Origin: Yuukianura sp. NJ FZ-2021
Taxonomy: Eukaryota
Direction of reading: 5' to 3'
NCBI GenBank assembly: GCA_046563655.1
Contig: CM102285.1
Location: 2,108,001-2,172,000, forward strand
DNA length: 64,000 nucleotides
Shown here: positions 24,701-62,600 of the stretch, piece after piece
Position numbering within the stretch: position 1 is the first letter of the stretch
How the letters are laid out: each line of letters starts with the position of its first letter
Made by a program: the position numbers and the translations under genes
Notes under the pieces: model-generated
Database searches by the model: none
What the model was told of the DNA's origin: nothing
The model's input: the letters and a program-made list of their open reading frames with translations, nothing else

Positions 24701-27396
24701 ACTTGGAACAGGAGGAATTAAGCCTTGCGTGGCTGCGTTTGGTGGTGACCAGTTTATACTGCCGCAACAAGCTACGCAACTCGTTACATTTTTCTCCATC
24801 TTCTACATGGCCATCAATTCTGGAAGCTTGTTATCCACCTTCATCACACCGATTTTGCGTTCCGATGTTCAATGCTTTGGAGATGAGTCATGCTATTCTC
24901 TTGCCTTTGGCGTTCCAGCAGCCCTGATGATCGTTGCAACGCGTAAGAACATAACTAAATGAAAAGAATTCAAAATTTGGAAAACAAATTCAAAATTCAA
25001 ACCAAACTGAATTTTGAAATGCACATTCGATTGGTTAAACATTACAATTGAATTTTTATTTTCAACAGTTGTGTTCGTGGCGGGTAAATTTATGTACAGG
25101 GAAATAAAGCCAACTGGCAATGTTGTGTTGAAGCTCTGCAAATGCATTGGAGTAAGAACTCTAATTTAAAAAAAAGAATTGAATAACAAATTTTCGGAAA
25201 AATGGAACTAATTTTTTATTTTTGAATTTTCAGCACGCTATTGGAAACCGAGGCCGTGGAAAGGACCATTGGTTGGACAATGCTGATGACGAGTACGAAC
25301 AACGATTCATCGAAGACGTCAAAATCGTTTTGCGCATTCTCGTTCTTTACATTCCTCTTCCGGTCTTCTGGGCACTTTTTGATCAACAAGTAAATTGGAT
25401 CAAAATAAGCCAAAAATTATAATTATACTTATGTTTATATTGTATTTTTAGGGATCTCGATGGACTCTTCAAGCTACTCGAATGGACGGCGTTGTTTTTG
25501 GCTACACGATCAAACCCGATCAAGTTCAAGTCCTCAACCCAACGCTCATTCTTCTTTTCATTCCGCTCTTCGACAAAGTCATTTACCCGCTGCTCGCAAA
25601 GTGCGGACTTTTGAAAAACCCGCTCCATCGTCTCTTCATGGGAGGAGTTCTTGCTGGTGTTGCTTTCCTCATCTCCGGAGTTCTCGAATTAGGACTTGAG
25701 GTGAGTCACGTTTTATGAAACTAAAGTTTGACCCAGAGTTGATCTCCCGCCCTCGAAATTTGAATTTCGGCTATAAATCTGAAAAATTTCTTGTGTTTTT
25801 CCAGAGCACATATCCGATGGTACTGACTCCAGAGCAATCCAATTTGAACTTCATCAACACCCTTCCATGCCCCATTGCACTCAACTACAACGGCCAAAAG
25901 ATTGAGATTCCGACAAACGGCAGCGGTATTTTTCAAAAAGTTGAAGCCCGTGAATACAGCTTGTACATGCACGATGGAAACAAAGGAACAGATCCGTCAA
26001 TTCAACTGACGGTTGGATGCGAACCTACTTACCCTATCATGTTCAATATTTCCAAACCATTTGCATTCAAAGCATACAAAAGCGCTGCGGAGTTAGCAGA
26101 ACAACATGATACGGATGAAGCAAAACAAGGCGGGGTAACTTGAGTATAAAATTTCCATAGTCGAATAATTTGGTTTAACCTAAAATTTAACTTGTTTTTA
26201 AAATTTAGAGCTTTTCGTACATGGTCACATATTCGGTGGATAACAATATCAAGTTAGCGTATGGATCTCGGTCAGATGATAGACAGAAGCCTGCCGAAGG
26301 AGATCCAAAAGTCAGGTAAATTTAAATTCCGTAATTTTGTATTTCTGATTCGCAGTAAAAAAAAAGTTTTCGAAATCGGAATTTCAAAAGTTGCTTTTTT
26401 AAATTTTAGGTTTCTTGTGGGAGGAGACTACTTTTTCCCGCATGAGGGTTCGAACATTCCGCAGGGGAAATTGTCAATGTACGTCTACGGCGACTTCGCC
26501 TCTGGTGAAGAAAGCAAAGAAGCAGTTTTTGTCAAACCATCAAAATCGGATTATCCGTACTATCCAAACGATGGTTACGCGAGTGAAACTATCACGTTAG
26601 AACCAGTTCCGTAAGTACTTTGGAAAAAATCAAAATTAAAAAAATCTGCACGATTTTCAAAATTATGCATTTTTGGATTCTAGACACAAGAAGTTCCGAT
26701 TGGTCTTTGGACGTTCAGAAGATCAAGCAAACATTTCGTCTGTTACGGTGGATTTCGAACAGGAATTTGATTTCAAATTGGGCGGTAGCTACATCATTGC
26801 AATTGCTCCGAAAGAATACAAAAACAGTACAGTGTCAAATCACCTCGCGAATTTTGATAATCCGGAATCCTACGTTCTTTCCCGCCACACGATTACGCAA
26901 GAAAGTTCTATTCATATGTTGTGGCTTCTACCGCAGTACATTGTACTCACTGCAGCAGAAATTATGTTCTCCATCACCGGTCTAGAATTTTCATACTCTC
27001 AGGTATGCGAAAAACGCGTAATTTTGAAATTTCGTCGAAATTTTTTTCGAAAAATCTCAACGTTCACATTTTGTGTCTAGGCTCCAGTTTCGATGAAATC
27101 TGTGATGCAATCGGCTTGGCTCATGACAGTTGCTTTTGGTAACTTGATTGTCGTCATCATTGCTGAAGCTAAATTTTTTCCACTTCAGGTAATACAACGG
27201 CATACATTCGAGTTAAAATTTAGATTTTTGCTATTCAAAATTTGCAATTTTTATGTATTTCCTTGAACAGTCTCAAGAGTTCTTCTTGTTCGCTGGACTG
27301 ATGTTTGTGGACATGATTGGTTTTGCTGCTTTGGCATACCGCTACGTACCTGCTCAACTAGAAGATCCAACTAAAAGAAGGAATAGCTCAAAATAA
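21795..27396 (+). CDS. SLC15/PepT proton-coupled oligopeptide transporter, copy 1 (alternative first exon at 23932-23961)
   Basis: Contains NEFCERFSYYGM (ExxERFxYY), GTGGIKPCVAAFGGDQF, FFSIFYMAINSGS, FWALFDQQGSRWTLQA, a large extracellular domain and GLEFSYSQAP-SMKSV. Stop at 27394-27396. Confidence 0.92.
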
Positions 27397-27874
27397 AATT
27401 TATCAAAATAACTATACGAATTAATAAACACAAATTTTGGAAACATTTCTTTGATGTCCCTATTTTTTACGTTCATTTTCTGTTTATATACATTTATGAA
27501 AGTTCTCAAAGGAAATTGGTTTTATACACCAATTAAACTGCACAGGGACTTCGCAACAGTTAGAAAATTCATCTAAAAACAAAATTAGCCCAGAATAAAA
27601 ATTTCGTGAGTAAATAGCAGGAAGATAAATCCGAATTTTGATAAGTTTAAACAAAAATTGAGGCGGATCATAAGTTTCCTAGAATTTTCATATTTCAAAA
27701 AGTAGCACAGGAAAACAAATTGGGAATCTTATTCCGTGAACCATTCTTACGTCATCGCTTGTACAAAATAAAGCTGTATATAAATCCAACGCAACTCAGG
27801 TTTTGCAAACTTTATTCAAAACTACACTAATTTCGGTTTTTCCTTCAAAATTTTCTATTCAATGAACTAAAACA

Positions 27875-28329
27875 ATGGCGAAACATTTTGGTTTGATATT
27901 GTGCATTTGCGTTATCGGAGTGTTGTCACTGGTGAATAACGTTGAGGGACAGCGAGGAGGCCGTCCGTTTATCACGGGTCGTAAGCCTGGTGGCAGTGGA
28001 GATCCCCGTTTGCACTTCGACAAATCCAGTAACAGGAAACAAGCTATGGATAAAGCACAGGAAGCTGGAAAAGGTTTTTATTTCAACATTATGAATACTT
28101 TTTGTTCTAAATCGTACATTGTCATTTAAATGACAGAATATCAACGCATTAGCATCTATGCTTTAATACATTTCAAATACAATAATTATATTCATATTAT
28201 TATTTCGTATTAGGTAATCCTCCAGTTCATCACCAACCTCACAAACCCGGTCAACAGCCGCACTTCCATCCGACAAATCGTGACGGCAGCATTCGTAAAG
28301 ACGGTTCTCATTACAGTTACCCCGGTTAA
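27875..28329 (+). CDS. Small secreted His-rich protein (104 aa, 2 exons), putative HNH-fold toxin-like nuclease
   Basis: Exons 27875-28073 and 28214-28329 join in phase 1. A signal peptide ends at VEG. TATA (tatataaat) at ~27777 and AATAAA at ~28442. C-terminus SNRKQAMDKAQEAGKGNPPVHHQPHKPGQQPHFHPTNRDGSIRKDGSHYSYPG. The gene model is solid; the product call is inference. Confidence 0.75.
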
Positions 28330-29481
28330 ATCAAAATTGACCACTTCTGTGCAAATTTTACTTTAAAATTTCAATTTTTCAATCAATAACTTTAAATTGG
28401 TTTAAGTTTAAGAAACTTATTATTGGTAGCAAAACACGGCAAATAAAGATTGCGCAGAAGCATTGAGCAGAACGAAAACAATTTCAGAGTTGGGAAAGAA
28501 AACTAGGTTCTGTCAAAAATGTTGAATTTCTTGAAGCTTATGGTTAATTTTCAAGGCCAACTTTTCAATTAGTAGAATCTAAAATTCAACTGTTTGATGA
28601 GCTAGAGTTATGCTCAAAATTTTGAGCTGAAGTAAATTCCAAACTTGTTTGGAAATTCACTTCGATAACTTTTCCATTGTGTTATGTGTAGTAAGGTGAC
28701 CTTTGACTTTTTGATGATTACGTCGGACGTAAAACTTTTAGTAATTCGAAACCACAACCATTGGAAAACCGCGGGCTGATATAAAAATTAAACACAAATA
28801 GTGAAAGTGATATCTCGCCTTGTTTGTCTGAATTTGCAATTTGAACATCATTTGAAAAAAAGTCTCCGACCGTCAGTTGTACAAATATATAAAATTTTGG
28901 TTTTAAAATTTATCACTCGCGTGGCTTTTTTTTTTGCGGAAGTTTACTATACACAAGAACGTTTCTTCTTTTGATAAATTTGTTGTGTTGTGTATTTTGT
29001 TATTTGTGATAAACAATGTATATAGGATTAGGGACACGTACCTAAAATTTAATATGTGTAAATTCTGTCTTTGAAAAGCTTTTCTTGTTTAGTCTCATAT
29101 GGAATCATAACTAAGAATAATTAGCTTTAATTAAAGTTTTAGTTAATTAAAAAGTTACGACACTGTATCTGAAGTGTGCGCGGTGTAATAGGCGTGAATG
29201 ACATCATTTGTGTAATTTTTGTTGACCGGATTTCATCAAAACAGAATACGTCCATGACTACTTTTATCCGATCGTCCGGCATTGATAACTTTCTCAATTG
29301 CTCTATTGATGATAATTTTAACAATGGAATCTCTCAAGTTATGTATCAAGGTTAGTCAGTATTGCTAGCGTAATTCCTACTGTGACCTCCATTGGACGCT
29401 CCTTCGCTAGGTCACTAGCATTTCACATCGCTGAATAGCAACAGTTCGGTTTCAGCTTCCATCCAAACTTATATTTCGGAA

Positions 29482-32400
29482 ATGGAGGACTCGGACAAGA
29501 GAAACGGTAAGCCGAATACACAAAATTAGCTAAACTGTTTTAGATATTGATTACAATTTGCAAATTGAGAGAGACATTTTTTAAATGAAATCGTCGAAGT
29601 TTTGAAAATTTGAGAAATTAATATTTTTAGACTCTGCAGTGGTAGAAGTGAGGCCAAAGGATGTGGAATCTAAGCTGCAGGTAACACAGAAATTAGGAAT
29701 TAATTTATCGGAATTTTAATTTTGTAGTATTGTTTAAAATTTAAAATTTGTTTTTCAAAACAGAAATTACCATATCCAAAATCCGTCTTTCTCATTATCA
29801 CCAATGAGTTCTGCGAACGATTTTCGTTCTATGGAATGCGAACTGTTTTGGTTCTGTACCTCACCACAGTGCTAATGTTCTCAGAAGATGATGCAACAAT
29901 TATCTACCACGGGTTTCTTATGCTCTCTTACTTCACGCCACTTATGGGAGCCATGTTGGCGGATTCCATTCTTGGAAAATTCAAGTAACTTTTTATTTTT
30001 TGGAAATTTCAGACCAGAAATTTCGGTTTAATTTCAATACGTCTCTTTTTAACTCACTTTCAGAACAATTCTTTACTTATCAATTGTGTACGCAATTGGA
30101 AATATTGTTCTGGCTATGGCTGCCACTCCACCGCTCAACTTTCCAGCAGTGTAAGTTTTCAAAAAAAGTACACCCAAAAAATGGGTTTGTATTTATGTTC
30201 AGCATAAATTCTTTGCAGTGAAATCAGTATGCTTGGACTTGTATTGATTGCTTTTGGAACTGGAGGCATCAAACCTTGCGTGGCAGCATTTGGCGGAGAT
30301 CAATTTATTTTGCCACAACAAGCAGAACAACTCGTTTCGTTTTTTTCACTGTTTTATTTGTCAATCAACCTTGGTGGTTTAATGTCAACATTTATAACAC
30401 CAATTATCCGATCCGAAGTTCAGTGTTTCGGTGGGGACGAATGTTACTCACTTGCATTTGCAGTTCCAGCGGCACTCATGTTGGTATCAATTGGTATATG
30501 CTACAAGCAATTTCATTTTTATATAAAAAAAACTATGTTACAGTACATACAATGAACAATTAAAATCAAAGCTCTTCAATATAATGTTTTTTTTTTTTTG
30601 CAAATTACAGTTGTGTTCGTTGCTGGCAAGTTTTTATACCGAGAAGTAAAACCGCAAGGAAACATTGTTGTGAAAATGTTCAAGTGCATTGGGGTAAGAA
30701 TTGCAAGTTGAACTGTATTTGCATATATTCTGAAATTCAAAACAAAGTTTAAACAATTTTCAAAAAAAAAAAAAATAGCATGCCATTGGAAATAAAGGAC
30801 AGGGAAAAGACCATTGGTTGGATAATGCTGATGACAAGTACGAACAGCGGTTCATTGACGACGTCAAAATCGTTCTGCGCGTGCTCGTTCTCTACATTCC
30901 ACTTCCATTCTTCTGGGCTTTGTACGACCAGCAAGTACGGCTAGCTGCTTAGTTATTAACTTATTACAAAACCTAGTTGTATGTAAAACTGCTGCTTTAT
31001 CTTTACACCCACACCTCTATAACAGTGTTTCTGATGTTATTTTTGTTGCTTGTAGTCATCGAGATGGACGCTTCAAGCAACTCGAATGGATGGAGTAGTA
31101 TGGGGCTACACGATTCAGCCTGATCAGTTCCAAGTCGTCAACGGACTTTTGATTATCCTATTTATCCCGCTTTTTGATAGAGTGATTTACCCGATTCTTG
31201 GAAAATGCGGGCTTTTGAAGAAATCGACACACCGTCTCTTCATGGGTGGAATTCTGGCGGGAGTTTCCTTCCTTGTTTCGGGTGGAGTCGAGCTTCTTCT
31301 CGAGGTTAATTTTGCATTATGGGCATTATTATGCGTTCTAAGCTTTTGTGTTTTTATATTTTCAGCGAACATATCCTCTCGTGCTAGCGACGCATCAAGC
31401 CAATTTGAACTTTGTGAACACACTGCCGTGCGACATTACTTTGCGACTGGGCAACCTTGAATCTCGAATAGCCCCATTTGCAAGTCACGTTTTTGAATCT
31501 GTGGAAGCAGGAGAGTACCACTTGTACAAAGACAACGCAGAAGGTGGTGCGGGCACTGGAATTCATTTGCAGATAAATGAAACGTGTAAGCAACCTGGAT
31601 TACCACTGACACTCAACGTTCCTATTAGTTTCAAAGCGGATAAAAGCGACGCAGAAAAGGCAGAACAAGCTAACACAGATGAAGGGAAACAAGGCGGGGT
31701 AAAAACAAACAGAATTTGATGTGGCATGTCAAATTTCAGAATGCAATTTTTAAAATTTTGCACACTTTGTATATTAGGGTTTTACGTACGCGATAACATT
31801 CAATGTTAACAACAACATCACGTTAGGCTATGGGCATAAGTCAGATGACAGACAAAAACCTGCTAACGGAAATCCAAAAATAAGGTAAAACTTATTAAAA
31901 CTTAGTTATCTGACAACTAGCCAAGGTTTTCATGGGTGTACAACAATTTTAAATTTTGGTTCAAAAGATTTTTGGTTGCGGGTGATTACTTTTTACCTCC
32001 ATCAGAAGATGAAGCAGAAGATCATAAAATTCCGCAGGGAAAATTGTCAGTGTTTGTAAAAGGGGAAGGTGACGACGACGCAGAAGATCAGGAAGCAGTG
32101 ATAAACAAGGATCATGTTGATGGCTACGCCAATGTTGGATACTCTTCTGACACCATTACAGTAAAGCCAGTCAAGTACGCATGCGCGTTCAGAAAAACTT
32201 AAATCTTTAAAGATTTCAATAAGCTTTCTTTATTTTTTAAAATTGCTTCTAATTTTTAGGCACAAAATATTCAAGCTCGTGTATGGGCGTTCCAATGAAA
32301 ATCCTGAACTTGGATCAGTTGTTGTCGATTTTGAGCAAGAGTTTGACTTTAAATTGGGGGCTAGTTATGTTATTTCAATTTCCAAAAATGGAAGTTATCC

Positions 32401-32962
32401 TGCAACAGTTTCGAGTCCACTTGAAGGATTTGATGAAGCCGAAAGTTATGGATTGGCTCTACATACAATTACTACAGAAAGTTCAATGCACATGCTGTGG
32501 TTACTGCCACAATACATCATCATCACTGCTGGAGAAATTATGTTCTCAATTACTGGCCTTGAATTTTCGTACTCCCAGGTACGCCAATTTGGCAAGAAAT
32601 TGATGCAAGAGATTGAAAAGTACATGTTTTTAAAATTTTGAATTCTAGTCCCCGGTTTCAATGAAGTCTGTGATGCAGTCTGCTTGGCTTATGACAGTCG
32701 CATTTGGAAACCTGATAGTTGTTATCATCGCTGAACTCAAATTTTTTGACCGACAGGTTTGGGAAAACTATATTTACTTCATATTTTTAGCAAGGTATTC
32801 AACCTCAAAGTATTCAACTTGAATTTTGATTTGCTCTAGTCCATGGAATTCTTTCTATTTGCCATTCTAATGTTCGTGGATATGGTTGCGTTTGCTATTA
32901 TGGCGTACTTCTATGTTCCAGCGCAGTTGGAAGATCCATCCAAGAAGAAAAATAACGACTAA
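29482..32962 (+). CDS. SLC15/PepT oligopeptide transporter, copy 2
   Basis: NEFCERFSFYGM, GTGGIKPC and the same exon structure as copy 1. Stop TAA 32960-32962. Confidence 0.9.
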
Positions 32963-33246: not shown

Positions 33247-36200
33247 TTACGCAAAAATTTCTTTGTAAACACAGTTTAGTGTGAACCATTTATTCACTCC
33301 AGGCACCAATTTTCCTTGATTTTCACGGGTAATCATTTTCACCCGTACATTTTCTTGTTTGGTGCACCTAGAGAATGCTACGTATAATTGACCGTGGCTG
33401 AACACTGGAAATGGCAAGTAAATACCAACAGAATCCAGTGACTGTCCCTGGGCTTTGTTAATGCTCATAACGAAAGCCAAGGCCACTGGAAACTGGCGTC
33501 TCCGAATTTCAACCGAAAAGTCACTTTCGGAGGAAACCAAGTCAATTCTGGGTAGAAGGACTTGTTGTCCTTCGTGCCTTCCTTGTAGGATTTCAGCACA
33601 AATGACATTTGGCTTTAGTGACTTTATAATAAGTCGTGTGCCGTTACATAGGCCACGTCTTTTGTTCAAATTACGCAAAAGCATAATTATTGCTCCAACT
33701 TTGAGCTTTAGGTGGTGAAGTGGAAACCCAGATGGTGTCAGGGTGTTAATAAATTCGACAGGATAGTCCTCAGTCGAACCCTCTCCGTCGTCATCGACAG
33801 AATCGGTGCTGAAGTAAGCGACTTCTTGTCCTTCGCTGCGGTATAATATTTGTTCATTTAGTTCATGAACATGTTCGTTCTTTGGTGTTAATATAGCTTT
33901 TTTAGCCAAAGCTTTTACATTTTCTTCATCCAGCGAAATTTTTTCGCCGAAAATGGAGGATATTAGATCATTTTCTTCAATACAATCTGCCGGGAGTTCA
34001 ATTATATCGTCCCCCAAATTGTATTCCGTGGACAAATTGCCATCCCCGAGATCAAGTAGCCATTTATTGTACTCAATTTCTGCGGGTCCAGTACGCATAT
34101 TTTCTGAAAGATTAAGAGGTTTGAAATACCTCCAAACTTTGCTTCTTTTAAGCGAAGCTTGAACAATCTGTGCACGCTTACCATGCTTCACAATTGGGAG
34201 AGTTTGTCTGAAATCCCCTCCAATTAGGAACAACTTATTCCCGAAGGGTTTATTTACTCCCATTATTTCTCGGAATAAACGGTCAACAGCGTCCATGTTA
34301 TAGCATGGGGTCATTGTGACTTCGTCCCAAATAATAATAGAAGCTTCACGTAGAAGCTTTGCCTCTTTTGATGTTGGCTTAATTTTTGACGTTGTCGTCT
34401 CATTTGTATGAATGCCTAGTCCAAATCTAGAGTGGTACGTTGTACCAGCTTCTAGAAGTGTGGCTGCTAAGCCAGTAGATGCTACTAAGCAAGTTTTTAA
34501 GCCTCTACCTTGAAAGGTTTTATCAAGGGTATTATAGAGGAAGGTTTTACCACTTCCTCCAGGGCCATCAATAAAAAAGCATTTGCTGTAAGTGTCAGCA
34601 TTCTCTGCGAATAAAATCGCATCATAAGCTTCCTTCTGGGCAGCATTCAACATTTCAGTCAAACGCTCTGCTTCAGAAGCAAGAGCTTGAATGTCAATAC
34701 CTCCCAAGAGATCTTCCAAGTCATCTCTAGGCATGGGCAGGTTATATTCATCGCAAGATTTGCGATGCAGATTTAAAGTTTCTTCTAAATCTCGCAAGCC
34801 CAGTTGCTCTGCCAGTTCAGGAGAATGTTCTTTCAAATGATCTTCCAGGAAATCGTCTTTGTAAGTTTCCCAGAGTGCCTTAGGATCCGTGGGTGGTCCA
34901 AAAACGCAAATCATTGCAAATAAATCCCGTAATTGGTATGGCATTTGGTAAGTTATAGCATCCAAAATGCATCTCTCCCATTGGGAATCATCAGAAAGAA
35001 GTTGCAAAGCGATAGCAGCTTCTTTGAATGTGTCATAGACAGTTCCGTTTACCGTTCGAACGTCTTTGAACGATTGTGCTCCTTTTACATGTAAGAGGAG
35101 CAGCCTCAAGTAAAACAATTCGCCTTGAGACACAGAAACAGTGTACATTCTAGAAATGGTTTTCCCAGAGGCTTTTTTCCTCGGGTTCCATTTATGCCAT
35201 TTTCGGTCCCATATATAATACTCAGGAATTTCCGAATAGAGAAATCGATGGGCATTGGTATCAGCCCTGTTTAATTCAAAGTAGGCTTGAAGCATCGAAC
35301 TGCTCAGATTCGCTTCTTCAAAAGCCCCCTCTTCATCCCCCTCTTCAAAATATACCTGTTGCATATTTTCGAGATGAACTGGGAGTCTTTTAATTACATG
35401 GGATGTGTCATCCATTCTATATTTTCTGATACGCCATACTCCTTCTGGAGCGCTAATGTATCTAGAATCCACAAACTGTGCAGGTTCGTCCCATGTTAAA
35501 GTATCGAGGCGTACGTTTGCACAATCATGGCCTTTGTATATGTACTTGTACAAATATTTTACGCTTTTAATTGAAGCGCAAACTTCCACGTTAATATGAC
35601 TGTTATATTTTAGTAACAGAAATGGATTGTAAGGAACAACCCATGAATTGTCAATCATGTGACTTCCAAGTTTATATTGTACACCAGTATCACGTCTTCG
35701 GTACTGGGGATAACCGTCTTGGTTAGGGTTTGTTTCGTTTACAAACGTCTTTGGAAATTTCTTAGAGCATTCTCCGTTGCTCATGCAAATAGAGGATGGA
35801 TTCATTTGCCCGCAAGGTCCATGAATCATATTCTGCATAACTATAGCATGAAGCCGTGGATGAGTCTCAGGATTTGGTATTTCTGACCTCACCACTCTGT
35901 CAATTGAGTCAGGCTCTTTAAGTTTATTTTCCTCATCCAAAATTAAAAGCATATGGCAGTGAGGAAGGCCACGTTTTTGGAACTCAATTACATAAACGTA
36001 TGCAATAACTTTGCCAAAAATATTCTTTTTTAGAATATCATTCAAAAGTTCTTTGAGTTTCAGTTTAAAAACTCGGGCAACTAAATCAGGGCGAAATTCA
36101 GCCCTTTGCCAAGGTTCTAGATTTTCTGTAATTTCTCGCCATTTTGGATTACATGTCATCGTGACAAATAGATCAGGCTTTCCATATTTCCGAACAATTG

Positions 36201-37770
36201 TCATTGCGTCTTGGAAATTTTGTGCCATAGCTCTTGGGCTGCCGATAAATGATGACGGCAGAATCACTGCGGTCCCTGCTTTTAGCCCATTATTTTGAGC
36301 AGTGTTGTTCACGTGATCCATAAGTCCAGCATAGCTATCGACTCGTAAAGCCTTTTGGTTCATTCGTATGTAATTTAGCCGATTAGCTTCAATTTTAACA
36401 TAACTGTCAACAATAAATTGTTGAGTTAGTTTCCCAGCATTTAAAATGGGATTAAATTCGTCCCTTACCGCCAATCTGTACGCATAGTACTGTAATTGGC
36501 TAATCTTTTGTTTATCTTCATCGTCATCGTGTGGCTCTTCAATTTCACCTATTGTGAGCCTTTGAAATTGGGTGCTCAATGCTTTACCCACGGTTAAATT
36601 GATAGTCCATCCACTATCACCGTAGGGAAACAGCAATGGGTATGTCATCGCATCACATTTTTTATGTAAAAAGCTAATCGGCTGAGTTCTATTTTCAGCT
36701 CGAGAATGGATCTTTATGTCCCGGTTGAATGGAGGTTCGCCCAAAGTATTTTGAAATACCACCGCAACTTCGTTGCATCTTGGGGCATTGTACCTCCTCT
36801 GATCATCAGAATAGTCATTTACAATAGACATTGAAATTTGATGAGGAACTCGACCTTCTTGTCGAGCTAATTCCTCTTCTTCAAGTTCAAATTCTCGCAT
36901 CATTTTATATGCGTGAGCAAAAGGATTTATTTGGCGCATGAGAATATCTAATTCGTTCATTAGTGCAGGGTTACAACCTTTATTTGAATTCTGCCCTATT
37001 CGGTTAGTTAACGCCTCCTCCGCGTCAATAATATACAGTTGAGCATATTCGGGCTGCTCCCCTTGGCGTGGGTGCAGTGGTCCAGTCAAATGATAAATTT
37101 GTCCGTGAATCCGGAAGCAGTAAGGTCCATAGCCAGGAGGTGGGGCAATTTGTGCTCCCATTGACGCAAAAGCTACTGCACTATTGTAAGATCTGATATT
37201 TTCGACAAAATTCCGAGATAATTCATGGTCATGTTTCATTAGGTTAGTAATAAATTCATTCGTTCTTAGGTTAGGCAAAATAATTTTTCCATGCTCGCAG
37301 CATGATGAAAATTGTTTGGTAGTACTTGACCTTTCCCCATCAAAATTTTTTGAATTACAATGCCCGCACCGTGCAGTCATGCTGCCTATAAAATATTCTT
37401 GGACATTATGTTCATCCAGAAAGCTGGAATTATTCAACTCAGCACGTACTTGCGGCCCATGTCGTCTCAGATTGGAATTTCGTGCATCCGCGCGCCTTGC
37501 TCTTCGCGCCCTATGGCGTAATGTATCGGATTCCCGGCGCTGTTCAACTTCATCGATTGATAGGTTAGCTCTAGAAACCCTCATGCGCATTGCAGCTGAT
37601 TGTCTCTGCTGTGCAACTTCATCTTCTTCCATTAGTGTTCTTCTCACTTGCTGGCGTTCAGCATCCAATTGCTGACGTCTAAGTGTTTCTTGGTCGGTTT
37701 CACGGGCCCGGGCAAGTCTTTTCCGAATAGCGCCAGGAGTCATAGACAGCTCTCTCTTTCTTCCCGACAT
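33247..37770 (-). CDS. Helitron RepHel transposase (HUH Rep + PIF1-family helicase), 1507 aa, intronless and intact
   Basis: Rep motifs PDLFVTMTCN, IEFQKRGLPHCH and KYLYKYIYKG. Helicase motifs GPGGSGKT, IIWDE, GGDFRQTLP, MSINKAQGQSL and HGQLYVAFSR. N-terminal CxxC...CC Zn motif. Confidence 0.97.
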   Translation of the reverse strand: MSGRKRELSMTPGAIRKRLARARETDQETLRRQQLDAERQQVRRTLMEEDEVAQQRQSAAMRMRVSRANLSIDEVEQRRESDTLRHRARRARRADARNSNLRRHGPQVRAELNNSSFLDEHNVQEYFIGSMTARCGHCNSKNFDGERSSTTKQFSSCCEHGKIILPNLRTNEFITNLMKHDHELSRNFVENIRSYNSAVAFASMGAQIAPPPGYGPYCFRIHGQIYHLTGPLHPRQGEQPEYAQLYIIDAEEALTNRIGQNSNKGCNPALMNELDILMRQINPFAHAYKMMREFELEEEELARQEGRVPHQISMSIVNDYSDDQRRYNAPRCNEVAVVFQNTLGEPPFNRDIKIHSRAENRTQPISFLHKKCDAMTYPLLFPYGDSGWTINLTVGKALSTQFQRLTIGEIEEPHDDDEDKQKISQLQYYAYRLAVRDEFNPILNAGKLTQQFIVDSYVKIEANRLNYIRMNQKALRVDSYAGLMDHVNNTAQNNGLKAGTAVILPSSFIGSPRAMAQNFQDAMTIVRKYGKPDLFVTMTCNPKWREITENLEPWQRAEFRPDLVARVFKLKLKELLNDILKKNIFGKVIAYVYVIEFQKRGLPHCHMLLILDEENKLKEPDSIDRVVRSEIPNPETHPRLHAIVMQNMIHGPCGQMNPSSICMSNGECSKKFPKTFVNETNPNQDGYPQYRRRDTGVQYKLGSHMIDNSWVVPYNPFLLLKYNSHINVEVCASIKSVKYLYKYIYKGHDCANVRLDTLTWDEPAQFVDSRYISAPEGVWRIRKYRMDDTSHVIKRLPVHLENMQQVYFEEGDEEGAFEEANLSSSMLQAYFELNRADTNAHRFLYSEIPEYYIWDRKWHKWNPRKKASGKTISRMYTVSVSQGELFYLRLLLLHVKGAQSFKDVRTVNGTVYDTFKEAAIALQLLSDDSQWERCILDAITYQMPYQLRDLFAMICVFGPPTDPKALWETYKDDFLEDHLKEHSPELAEQLGLRDLEETLNLHRKSCDEYNLPMPRDDLEDLLGGIDIQALASEAERLTEMLNAAQKEAYDAILFAENADTYSKCFFIDGPGGSGKTFLYNTLDKTFQGRGLKTCLVASTGLAATLLEAGTTYHSRFGLGIHTNETTTSKIKPTSKEAKLLREASIIIWDEVTMTPCYNMDAVDRLFREIMGVNKPFGNKLFLIGGDFRQTLPIVKHGKRAQIVQASLKRSKVWRYFKPLNLSENMRTGPAEIEYNKWLLDLGDGNLSTEYNLGDDIIELPADCIEENDLISSIFGEKISLDEENVKALAKKAILTPKNEHVHELNEQILYRSEGQEVAYFSTDSVDDDGEGSTEDYPVEFINTLTPSGFPLHHLKLKVGAIIMLLRNLNKRRGLCNGTRLIIKSLKPNVICAEILQGRHEGQQVLLPRIDLVSSESDFSVEIRRRQFPVALAFVMSINKAQGQSLDSVGIYLPFPVFSHGQLYVAFSRCTKQENVRVKMITRENQGKLVPGVNKWFTLNCVYKEIFA

Positions 37771-37877
37771 TATTCTTTATAGGTTAGGAAATGAACACAG
37801 AATGTGCGCTAACCAATTAGGAGATAAGGATTATGCCTATATAAATATGGCTTTACCTTCTAATTGAAGGATAGGAG

Positions 37878-59668: not shown

Positions 59669-62600
59669 ATGGACGACAGCATTGTAGTTGCAGGAATTTC
59701 AGGAAGATTTCCAGAGTCTACTACAGTAGATGAATTTTGGACAAATTTAGTGAATGGCGTTGACATGGTAACTGCCAATGATCGGCGCTGGCAGCAAGGT
59801 AAGCTAAGAATTTTATACTGATTAACTCTACAAGTTGTCTAATAATTTACATTATATCTTATTCGTACATTAACATTATATTACATTTACACTATGCATT
59901 ACTATGCATTATACTATGTTTACATTACACATATTATATTTAATAATTTATTTTTGTTTTACAAACAGGATTTTCTGGGCTTCCAAGGCGGAAGGGAACT
60001 TTGAAAAATTCGTTGGAGGAATTTGACTCGGACTTTTTCGGAATTCATCGCAAGCAAGCCGAAAGGTTGGACCCACGCCTTAGACAGCTTTTGGAAGTGA
60101 CCTGGGAAGCGATTTTCGATGGCGGTAAAAATTCAAATTCCAAATGCAAAAAATGTTGTTTGAAATTTAAAAAAATTGTTTGAAATTAGTGTATAAATTT
60201 TTTAACTAGGAGTGAATCCAGTTGAACTTCGTGGGCGAGCTATTGGTGTTTACGTTGGTGTTTCAAGTCAAGAAACAATTGAAGCAGCGCGATCGAATCC
60301 AGCGACTGTTAGCTCTTACGATGTTCCAGGTTCAGCCGGTTGCATGTTTGCAAATCGCGTGTCGTTTGCTTTTGATTTTCGCGGTCCCAGTGCATGCGTC
60401 GACACTTACTGCTCGTCATCACTTATGGCATTACATATGGCGACAAAAGCAATCAGAAATGGAGAATGTGATGGAGCAATTGTGGCGGGAATTAACTTAC
60501 TGCTCAATCCATTCAGCAGTTTGCAAATCAATGCTCTAGGAGTGTTGTCAGAAGATGGAAAATGCAAATCTTTTGACGCTTCAGGTATTTTCATTTCAAA
60601 AAATTCTGTTCCTAAAATACTTTTTTTTGAAAAATATTTTTGTGCCATGCAATTTGCGTAATGCTTCCAAAGGTAACGGTTACGTCCAAAGTGAAACCAT
60701 CGCTGCTGTGTACATTACCAAAAAATCCTTGGCGAGGCGTTGCTACGCAACAATTGTAAACACTAAAACAAACACTGATGGTTACAAAACCAATGGCCTT
60801 ACATTTCCTTCTGGCTCTGCCCAAGAACTGCTCATGCGTCAAACTTACGCAGAAGTTGGACTACGTCCAGAAGACGTCTACTATGTGGAAGCTCACGGTA
60901 CAGGAACGGCTGTTGGAGATGTCCAAGAACTACAGGCAATTTCGGCAGTATTTTGCCCAAATCGTTCTCCGTCGACTCCACTTCTAATCGGATCAACTAA
61001 AAGCAACATGGGACATGCCGAAGCTGCTGCTGGCGTTGCATCATTGATCAAAGTAGTTCTTTCTATTAACAGAAATTTGATTCCACCGAATCTTCATTTT
61101 TGCACTCCGAATCCCGCCATAGCAGAATTACTCAACGGAAAGTTAAAGGTCAATTTAGCATGAGCTCAGATATATTTTGTTTGTTTATCAAATAGAAAAA
61201 TTTGTTAAATTTTGAAATTGTAACAGCTAAATATGTTGAATTTTTAAAAAATTTGTTCCAGGTAGTGACAGAAGCATCTGCTGTGTGCGGTGACCTGTTC
61301 GGAATTTCAGGATTTGGACTTGGTGGTACAAACGTTCACGTTATACTGAAACGTGAAATGGATCTGCCGGCAGAAACGTTTTTGCCAGCTTCAACCACGT
61401 TATTTCCAACGTTGATTCCGTTTTCCGCTCGAACACGAAAAGGAGTTCAGGGAGCGTTGGAGCAGGCAATAAAAACTTTTTTGTTTTTGAAATTTTCAGT
61501 TTCATTTATTTCTAGGCCAAAAAAAAATTTTTTTAACACGCAAAAAATTTTTGTATGAGTTTGTGTTTTCTCTTGACAGATCACCCAGAACCATGATTTT
61601 GGACAAATTCGTTTGCTAAACAAAATACATGAAATGCCAATTGCAAATCACAAATTTCGTGGCGTTTCTGTACTTGGATCAGAGAAACCAAATTCAGCCA
61701 TTCAGGTGAGTGTCAAGGCTCAATCGGAGTTTATTTATTTTATGTATTATTTAATATTCTGTTTTATTTTATTTTTCCTTCTCCTATATTGAATTTGGGA
61801 AATTTTGAATTTTAGTTTTTGAATACTTTTTTGTGTCAGGAATTGAGTGGCTGTAGACCTCTGTGGCTTATTTTCCCAGGGATGGGAACTCAATGGGCAG
61901 GAATGGGCAGAGACGTCATGGAAATTGACACCGTAAGACAATCCATTGAAAAGTCAGCGGCAATCATGAAACCATTTGGAATTGACGTGCCAGATTTAGT
62001 TGTCACTCAAGATGAGGAAACGTTCACGAAACATGTCATCACAGCATACACCATTATGGGGGTCAGTATATGCCAACAATTTAAAAAAACCCAAAGTTCA
62101 ATTGAAGTAAAAACACAAAATTTCCTCGAAATGCCCAACAATAATTTCTGGTGTTTCATCAATTTTTGAATTTTTAGATAGCGTTGGTGGATTTCATAAA
62201 ATCTTTGAATTTGACGCCGGATGGATTCATTGGACATTCAGCTGGAGAGGCACTCTGTGCCTACTTTGATGGTTGTTGGACACACGAAGAGGCTTTGTTG
62301 TGTCAGTATCATAAGGAAGTACTGCTTGCTGAAAATCCAGGCAACTGCGCCTGTGCAATGGCTTCGGTCGGGTTGTCTTGGGAAGAGGCAAATGCACAGT
62401 GTCCAGAATCCATATTTCCTGCTTGTCACAATGGTGACGACAACGTGACCTTGGCTGGTCCAGCAGCCGAACTGACGAAATACGTTGATGAGCTAAAGTC
62501 GAAAGGCGTTTTTGCTAAAATTGTTCCAACTGGGGGAATGGCTTTTCACAGTCCTTACATTAGCCACATCAGTTCAAAATTAGAAATATTTTTAAGGTAA

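Follow-up and report, generated by a model that had tools for sequence, protein, structure and literature searches.

Tox-HNH-EHHH domains (PF15657) are carried by Rhs, filamentous-haemagglutinin or LXG polymorphic toxins, and in the table of the survey that covers them Tox-EHHH is entered for bacteria only, several other toxin domains being entered there as transferred to eukaryotes (Zhang et al. 2012, PMC3482391). A count of 0 eukaryotic members is given for PF15657 in the family data of Jablonska et al. (2017, PMC5714182). Two further groups of toxins were used for comparison, namely Tox-REHH (Rehh), described as an Mn-dependent DNase with a basic histidine metal pocket (bioRxiv 10.64898/2026.09.22.753552), and the PT1 and PT7 DNases (bioRxiv 10.1101/2021.10.19.465003). 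The locus compared with them is a two-exon gene at positions 27875..28329 on the forward strand of a window of 64,000 nucleotides (nt) from Yuukianura sp. NJ FZ-2021 (assembly GCA_046563655.1, contig CM102285.1, positions 2,108,001 to 2,172,000); all coordinates below are those of the window, unless a metagenome locus is named. The original prediction, made from the sequence alone, had described the product as a secreted antimicrobial nuclease of bacterial origin with an HNH fold of the Tox-HNH-EHHH kind. In the analysis reported here, the gene is quite probably the descendant of a bacterial Rhs toxin C-terminal tip that was captured horizontally, and its domain family has no Pfam or NCBIfam model.

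The window protein resembles Tox-HNH-EHHH in being a short C-terminal tip with PHF and terminal HYxY histidines and a basic upstream helix, and differs from it in lacking the central hairpin and in having another immunity family, and neither hidden Markov model (HMM) searches nor profile-profile comparison support the relationship. Tox-REHH is described as being carried by Rhs and other systems; carriage by Rhs, lack of database similarity and an adjacent immunity gene (putative here) recur in the new tip. With R46, H52, E53, H102 and H121 as its published conserved residues, Rehh would be spaced differently and have roughly double the domain length, and the Rehh partner is Imm22, to which the open reading frames (ORFs) found downstream of the new tips have no match. 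PT1 and PT7 are described as short tips of novel fold with adjacent immunity genes, as is the case here; the profile of the new family gave 0 matches in PDB sequences at E<=10, PT7 (8owu) being among the sequences searched, and Foldseek returned 8owu_B only at an E of 4.

Domestication of toxins by animals is already known. The dae amidases of ticks are domesticated bacterial toxins. In gall midges, cdtB, aip56, rhs and sltxB are reported as domesticated from bacteria (PMC8455502), and teneurin Tox-GHH is given as an animal case of a bacterial toxin domain (PMC3482391). Common to the gall-midge, teneurin and tick cases is a bacterial toxin that moved into an animal nuclear genome and acquired eukaryotic signals. 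The rhs genes described from gall midges keep their YD-repeat shell (PMC8455502), whereas the window gene has only a tip of about 65 residues; it is further unlike the earlier domesticated toxins in belonging to an unnamed family, in having a signal-like peptide and in having an intron inside the domain. The tip family and its immunity partner appear undescribed: the literature search returned no description of either, with the qualification that the supplementary family lists of Zhang et al. 2012, of the PT paper and of a Salmonella STox survey may include it, and a search with the family's motif words returned only collagen and peptidome papers.

The gene was read directly from the sequence, and the layout and coordinates of the original prediction were reproduced. 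A TATA-like box (TATATAAA, 27777..27784, +), a putative promoter element, lies about 90 nt 5' of the start codon ATG at 27875. Exon 1 (27875..28073, +), which holds codons 1-66 and the first base of codon 67, ends with GGA AAA G at 28073 and is followed by GT. The intron (28074..28213, +) is 140 nt long, of the GT-AG type and in phase 1, and exon 2 (28214..28329, +) holds bases 2-3 of codon 67, codons 68-104 and the stop codon TAA at 28327-28329. A putative polyadenylation signal, AATAAA (28442..28447, +), is located 113 nt past the stop. The coding sequence, joined by script from these coordinates, is 315 nt long, corresponding to 104 codons and the stop. The guanine-cytosine (GC) content is 0.48 and 0.50 in the two exons and 0.22 in the intron, and the 500-nt flanks have values of 0.29 (upstream) and 0.32. 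The only ORF listed for the gene is a read-through of exon 1 of 84 amino acids (aa), as the original prediction had remarked.

Homology supports the splice junction at 28073/28214, which falls at residues 66/67: homologues that are uninterrupted at this point can be aligned gap-free with the spliced protein, and the junction-spanning 8-mer (residues 64-71) is identical in three of them (P0048, P0052 and P0071). A metagenome locus, L110, has a GT-AG intron of 61 nt at the same codon and in the same phase, in an identical nucleotide context (GGA AAA G/gt...ag/GT AAT CC). Residues 1-25 (27875..27949, +) comprise M-A-K-H, a hydrophobic stretch of 16 residues with a mean Kyte-Doolittle value of 2.97, and NNVEG, and are read as a probable signal peptide with a predicted cleavage site at its end; a hydrophobic N-terminal segment also opens the homologues P0047, P0048, P0058 and L110. 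The mature part would then have 79 aa, with a computed isoelectric point (pI) of 10.5, a net charge of +8 and 7 histidines.

The toxin-tip domain, delimited by alignments, column counts and blastp, spans residues 35-104 (27977..28326, +, split by the intron), and its elements are a GxSG strand, a helix at residues 53-66, H72/H73, H83-x-H85-P86, G91 and H99-Y-x-Y. The histidines singled out by the original prediction are all present, but two of the spacings it gave, x6 and x15, are wrong, the correct ones being H76-x5-PHFH and PHFH-x13-HY. Its separate cationic leader could not be upheld either: GRKPGGSGDP lies within the conserved domain and includes the GxSG motif.

Homologues were sought using HMMER (phmmer), exon 2 (37 aa) serving as the query for a database of 1.84 billion representatives. 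Nineteen matches had E<=1e-3, with 1.1e-10 as the lowest value, and 17 of the 19 were taken as clear relatives. The spliced window protein was compared with homologues locally, by script alignments and blastp. It matches P0047 at 70% over 74 aa and P0048 at 58% over 99 aa, and its residues 35-104 match residues 288-359 of the Rhs protein P0057 at 57% over 72 aa, with an E of 6e-22 in a blastp search of a small database. On these alignments, residues 35-104 or thereabouts belong to a domain family of about 65 residues. Among the remaining phmmer matches, P0061 was rejected as a relative, being probably spurious with its zinc-finger-like repeats, and P0051 (215 aa) is a degenerate repeat protein. 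P0051 looks secreted and contains one weak match to the full domain and partial matches to its C-terminal half, in which histidines are replaced by Q, Y and F; it could have arisen from the tip family by repetition and degeneration. Another observation concerns P0064 (408 aa), in which the tip stands at the C-terminal end after 320 Lys/Glu-rich N-terminal residues that match no Pfam family, and which may represent a further carrier architecture.

Other searches indicate that the family is rare in the genomes sampled and has no model in Pfam or NCBIfam. Neither exon alone matched Pfam at E<=10, and nothing was found in Pfam with the exon-1 read-through ORF or an ORF in the intron; with full-length homologues and bacterial tips as queries, no family was assigned to the tip in Pfam (2025 copy) or NCBIfam release 20. 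A shared-word search of an index of 5.8 billion proteins with exon 1 and exon 2 gave nothing, as did tblastn of exon 2 against plasmids. The 543 pattern matches of exon 1 in genome contigs included no true relative, and no relative was found in viral contigs with the family alignment. Only 1 of 401 sampled Pseudomonadota genomes contained a match. In a feature search of the ESM Atlas, the top entries were unnamed Bacillota clusters with scores of 0.85-0.87, which are to be taken as leads only.

The bacterial members place the domain at the end of Rhs toxins. P0057 is labelled 'RHS repeat-associated protein', and it contains RHS_repeat (Pfam) and Rhs_assc_core at residues 139-214 (NCBIfam) ahead of the tip at 288-359. 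Metagenome contigs were pattern-scanned with an alignment of seven sequences, and 39 loci were obtained. Twenty-nine of these are bacterial in type, with a GC content of 0.37-0.69, and in them the domain occupies the extreme end of the ORF, within 0-10 residues of its last codon. The host ORFs measure at least 2096, 1512, at least 1423, 1178, at least 951 and 622 aa, among others. RHS_repeat passed its Pfam cut-off in six of the eight large host ORFs, one of which adds TcdB_toxin_midN and FG-GAP and another DUF6531 and an RHS core, and the tip region of all eight is free of Pfam families. At locus L129, too, an RHS core lies upstream of the tip. The extreme C-terminal position after an Rhs core, which characterises the C-terminal domains of Rhs toxins, was therefore found here. 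The original prediction had expected relatives at the C-termini of such toxins together with a patchy eukaryotic distribution, and this was borne out by P0057, the 29 bacterial-type loci and the copies in bdelloid rotifers described below. A side observation is that the tips at L103, L126, L127 and L128, which are bacterial in type, are broken by stops or frame changes; L127 is on a contig of 2.09 Mb, and the four may be decaying or orphan toxin cassettes.

A conserved ORF of 92-130 aa was found directly 3' of the bacterial tips, its start lying -16 to +22 nt from the toxin stop. Its family motif is ...LWIGL..V......GAF.N......FGTFH, and examples are L099:6288-6608, L115:3028-3360 and L120:6223-6531, with 25 more loci. 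Fourteen such ORFs, including one that was mis-chosen, went into a profile. Of the 29 bacterial-type loci, 28 have a match to it just 3' of the tip, 13 of these having contributed to the profile and 15 not, and none of the 10 low-GC loci has one. By position and conservation, this ORF is the putative cognate immunity gene. For ten of the downstream ORFs that were compared with Pfam, nothing was matched at E<0.009 and none of the Imm families appeared, Imm8, Imm50 and Imm22 included, and no match was obtained in NCBIfam; they presumably constitute a new immunity family. The candidate immunity proteins have a median pI of 5.2 and no hydrophobic segment, and the tip and downstream ORF together have the standard layout of a polymorphic toxin tip with a putative cytoplasmic immunity protein. 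A six-frame translation of the window gave no immunity homologue with this profile (best E 0.38), in agreement with the earlier remark that none lay nearby.

Conservation was counted over 37 aligned domains, 19 bacterial and 18 other, using the numbering of the window protein. A57, A61, H83, H85, P86 and G91 are invariant in 37/37 rows, and H99 is present in 36/36 rows that have a residue there; G39, S41, G67 and P70 are kept in at least 34 of the 37. At position 73, 32 rows have H and 3 have D; at position 47, 27 rows have H and 8, all bacterial, have N; H72 is variable. H76 (codon 28240-28242) occurs in 16/18 non-bacterial rows versus 0/19 bacterial rows and, on these counts, is a lineage-specific addition beside the conserved site. 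The histidine conservation that the original prediction called for is thus universal for the pair in P-H-x-H and for the H of H-Y, and does not extend to the variable H72 or to H76. The tips have a median pI of 10.3 and a net charge of +8. In comparisons with four low-GC relatives, the proportion of non-synonymous differences (pN) was 0.18-0.31 and that of synonymous differences (pS) was saturated at 0.83-1.09; low pN with saturated pS indicates purifying selection on the protein.

Outside bacteria, P0049 clusters with other proteins from Rotaria, its own genus, and the cluster of P0063 includes proteins of Adineta steineri and A. vaga. Rotaria and Adineta are bdelloid rotifer genera. Ten of the 39 metagenome loci are low in GC (0.29-0.36) and encode short forms, some with hydrophobic N-termini, and one of them, L095, adjoins EGF and NHL genes. 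In a subgroup made up of L110:637-985, P0062 and P0065, H-D replaces H-H, a 7-residue insertion precedes P-H-Y-H, and the intron is shared; P0062 and P0065 have the appearance of exon-2 ORFs that a prokaryotic gene caller extended upstream into intron sequence.

A tree of 40 rows has a branch, supported at 97/96, with 16 bacterial tips on one side. On the other side, a group (97/93) takes in every eukaryote-like or unplaced row together with the bacterial L098 and the Rhs protein P0057, and the bacterial tips L100 and L108 are sister to this group. Bacterial tips thus lie on both sides of the main split. The eukaryotic copies are nested in one bacterial subfamily, and the subfamily that holds them ends in H-Y-x-Y-P. 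A direction of transfer from bacteria to eukaryotes fits this tree. The nearest relative of the window protein is P0047 (93/74). The branch that has the non-bacterial rows on one side is supported at only 10/0, and a single transfer and several transfers are both possible.

AlphaFold2 models were generated for P0047 with 24 sequences and for P0052 with 36. The mean predicted local distance difference test (pLDDT) score was 79.6 for P0047, with values of about 90 or more over residues 50-106, and 72.6 for P0052. Both models have the order strand-helix-strand-strand-strand (beta-alpha-beta-beta-beta), with the chain stopping after the last strand and no helix after the hairpin. In a canonical His-Me finger, a helix with a metal ligand comes after a beta-hairpin, and the catalytic His ends strand 1. 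Foldseek searches of the PDB with both models gave no match at E<=1e-3, and no His-Me-finger nuclease was among the fold matches listed. The only recurring fold matches were single VOC-type modules (glyoxalase/FosA) with Z<=4.7, and the contact-dependent inhibition (CDI) toxin 5t86_A gave Z values of 3.1 and 2.4. VOC modules (glyoxalase/bleomycin-resistance/FosA) have the same order of secondary structure as the tip, as in 4z04_A (Z 4.7, root-mean-square deviation 3.0, 56 residues), but all Z values are under 5, which is under the typical-noise level of the tool, and sequence identity is 2-14%. VOC sites require two modules.

The neighbours of the gene in the window are eukaryotic. PTR2/POT-like exons lie on both sides and on the same strand, at 26640-27077 (+) and 32165-32638 (+), with Pfam E values of 2e-5 and 1e-5, both of them matches that fall short of the curated cut-off; the best PDB match of the former is SLC15A2/A1. 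Both exons cover the same positions of the Pfam model, 309-352. The pair is consistent with tandem PepT paralogues flanking the gene, which is where the original prediction had put it. An unbroken ORF of 1508 aa at 33247-37776 (-), with Helitron_like_N (E 4e-65), a PIF1 helicase (4e-57) and Pif1_2B, appears to encode an intact Helitron transposase and is situated some 5 kb beyond the toxin-tip gene, on its downstream side. At 60540-61160 (+) there is an exon for a ketoacyl-synthase C-terminal domain, for which fatty-acid synthases of animals are the best PDB matches (E 2.8e-55). No paralogue of the gene was found elsewhere in the window, and a Rfam scan of the window gave no match. An intron, eukaryotic signals and eukaryotic neighbours on one contig are all present for the toxin-tip gene.

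The relationship with PF15657 was assessed using 8 loci from genome sweeps (5/401 and 3/301 genomes matched) and 44 proteins, a set in which one subfamily dominates. That the window protein is a member or shortened derivative of this family, a His-Me-finger DNase with a beta-beta-alpha-metal site, is unlikely. There is a resemblance in motifs, since PF15657 members have a helix R-x-G-A-F-x-E-A-K-R, D/E-H...G-H, G-P-H-F-N and a terminal H-Y-x-Y, and the window protein has N-R-K-x-A-x-x-x-A, H-H, P-H-F-H and H-Y-S-Y. For the [ED]H,H,H motif, [HEK][HD] at 72-73, H83/H85 and H99 can be aligned by eye with DH/GH, PHF and HY, but the spacing differs, and position 72 is K in 9/19 bacterial rows. PF15657 clusters appear at rank 6 (0.77) and rank 13 (0.75) of the ESM Atlas search, again as leads only, and the HHalign score of 14.0 was reached by 2 of 100 column-shuffled controls (9.7 +/- 1.8). 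The Rehh preprint describes how a deeply remodelled HNH site can hide without global similarity (10.64898/2026.09.22.753552), and an HNH fold with such a remodelled site is possible for the tip. On the other side, the Pfam model (25-bit cut-off) matched none of 18 homologues (E<=1), 8 host ORFs (E<=0.01) or the exons (E<=10), whereas positive controls scored 55.8 and 88.1 bits. HHalign probabilities were 2.8% over 8 columns and 1.1% over 42 columns, in registers that differ between runs, and the best profile-sequence E values against PF15657 members were 0.15 and 0.028. The beta-hairpin of about 35 residues in PF15657 has no counterpart in the new family, the partner ORF belongs to no Pfam family, Imm8 and Imm50 included, and the AlphaFold model lacks the helix after the hairpin. 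The family assignment of the original prediction is accordingly not supported. A local HMM of whole PF15657 proteins gave 5 bits against the spliced protein in a meaningless register. The idea that the intron is a decayed PF15657 hairpin (the read-through GKGFYFN...YIVI loosely resembling GKVYEF...VIIRDD) was rejected, since it conflicts with the uninterrupted homologues, bacterial Rhs tips among them, which have no such segment.

Descent from an Rhs tip might also be mere history if the animal protein is a non-catalytic, cationic, His-rich antimicrobial or metal-sequestering peptide. The composition of the mature part as computed above (79 aa, pI 10.5, net +8, 7 His), the lack of a delivery apparatus and the extra histidine H76 conserved in the eukaryote-like group (16/18 versus 0/19 bacterial rows) would suit such a peptide; the invariant residues are nevertheless those of the bacterial toxins (H83, H85, P86, G91, H99 and the helix alanines), and a compactly folded domain, as predicted for P0047 with a pLDDT of about 90 in residues 50-106, does not resemble a disordered cationic peptide, which makes this explanation improbable. 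Less probable still is an unexpressed relic of a transfer or a contamination of the assembly. The absence of the gene from the 5.8-billion-protein index by shared-word search is what such an explanation would lead one to see, but the ORF is intact and its splice sites are canonical, the intron position is common to L110, the GC contrast between exons and intron is sharp and non-synonymous change is low, the flanks hold intron-bearing PepT-like exons with the Helitron and the animal-type fatty-acid synthase exon nearby, and no bacterial relative of exon 1 turned up among the genome contigs searched.

With capture of an Rhs tip as the preferred explanation, the bacterial ancestor would have consisted of an Rhs core, a linker and the tip, followed by a dedicated small immunity gene. 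The animal-type genome would have kept the tip only, losing the Rhs shell and the immunity gene and gaining a signal-peptide-like N-terminus, a promoter, poly(A) signals and the phase-1 intron. The product would be exported co-translationally as a strongly basic protein of about 79 residues. A metal or catalytic site may be formed by H83-x-H85 of one strand together with H99 of the following strand and, in most members, H73, a possible fourth ligand or base; an alternating His pair with a His on a neighbouring strand is the usual build of a three-histidine metal site. The very basic tips, together with immunity proteins that have no export signals, point to an ancestral target that is cytoplasmic and probably anionic, nucleic acid being the best guess. 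H83/H85/H99, the basicity and the cytoplasmic type of immunity suggest a metal-dependent enzyme acting on such a target. We put a nuclease at slightly below an even chance and another enzyme activity at a good deal less. In the animal, the protein would serve as a secreted defence or digestive effector, and export would spare the producing cell and make the immunity gene dispensable, which would explain its absence. Direct bacterial killing and an extracellular role are equally plausible, the latter being directed at parasites or at nucleic acids that are free in gut, saliva or haemolymph.

Several points weigh against capture and reuse of a toxin tip as set out here. A secreted tip that acts in the cytoplasm has no obvious route into its targets when the Rhs delivery shell is gone. 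In the rotifer copies, the initial Met stands a few residues ahead of the domain and a hydrophobic N-terminus is absent, so that secretion is not general among the eukaryotic copies; as annotated, the rotifer proteins would not be secreted. A simple argument from DNA mimicry is weakened by three of the 13 immunity candidates, which are basic. Structural comparison with VIA-align gave best Z values of 4.7 and 3.3 in the wide search and 4.4 against the PDB, with no clear match, and the literature search found no biochemical study of any family member. Finally, Pfam, AlphaFold and the large searches were queried with the exons separately or with homologues rather than with the spliced chain.

A more specific and much more tentative proposal is that the domain represents a new toxin enzyme. 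It would be a single beta-alpha-beta-beta-beta module of about 60 residues, non-HNH, with an H-x-H plus H metal site, possibly VOC-like dimerisation and a new immunity family, captured by bdelloid rotifers and by the lineage of the window and, in at least one of them, secreted and supplied with H76.

To our knowledge, few cases of toxin borrowing by animals are known (dae, cdtB and the teneurins), and they mostly concern families of understood chemistry. The present gene is of note in that a minimal tip of about 65 residues was retained, that an intron lies within the domain, and that the family also occurs in bdelloid rotifers and in another animal-type genome. As the domain is small and easily synthesised and has three invariant histidines, both the mechanism of the bacterial toxin and the function of the animal protein would be directly testable.

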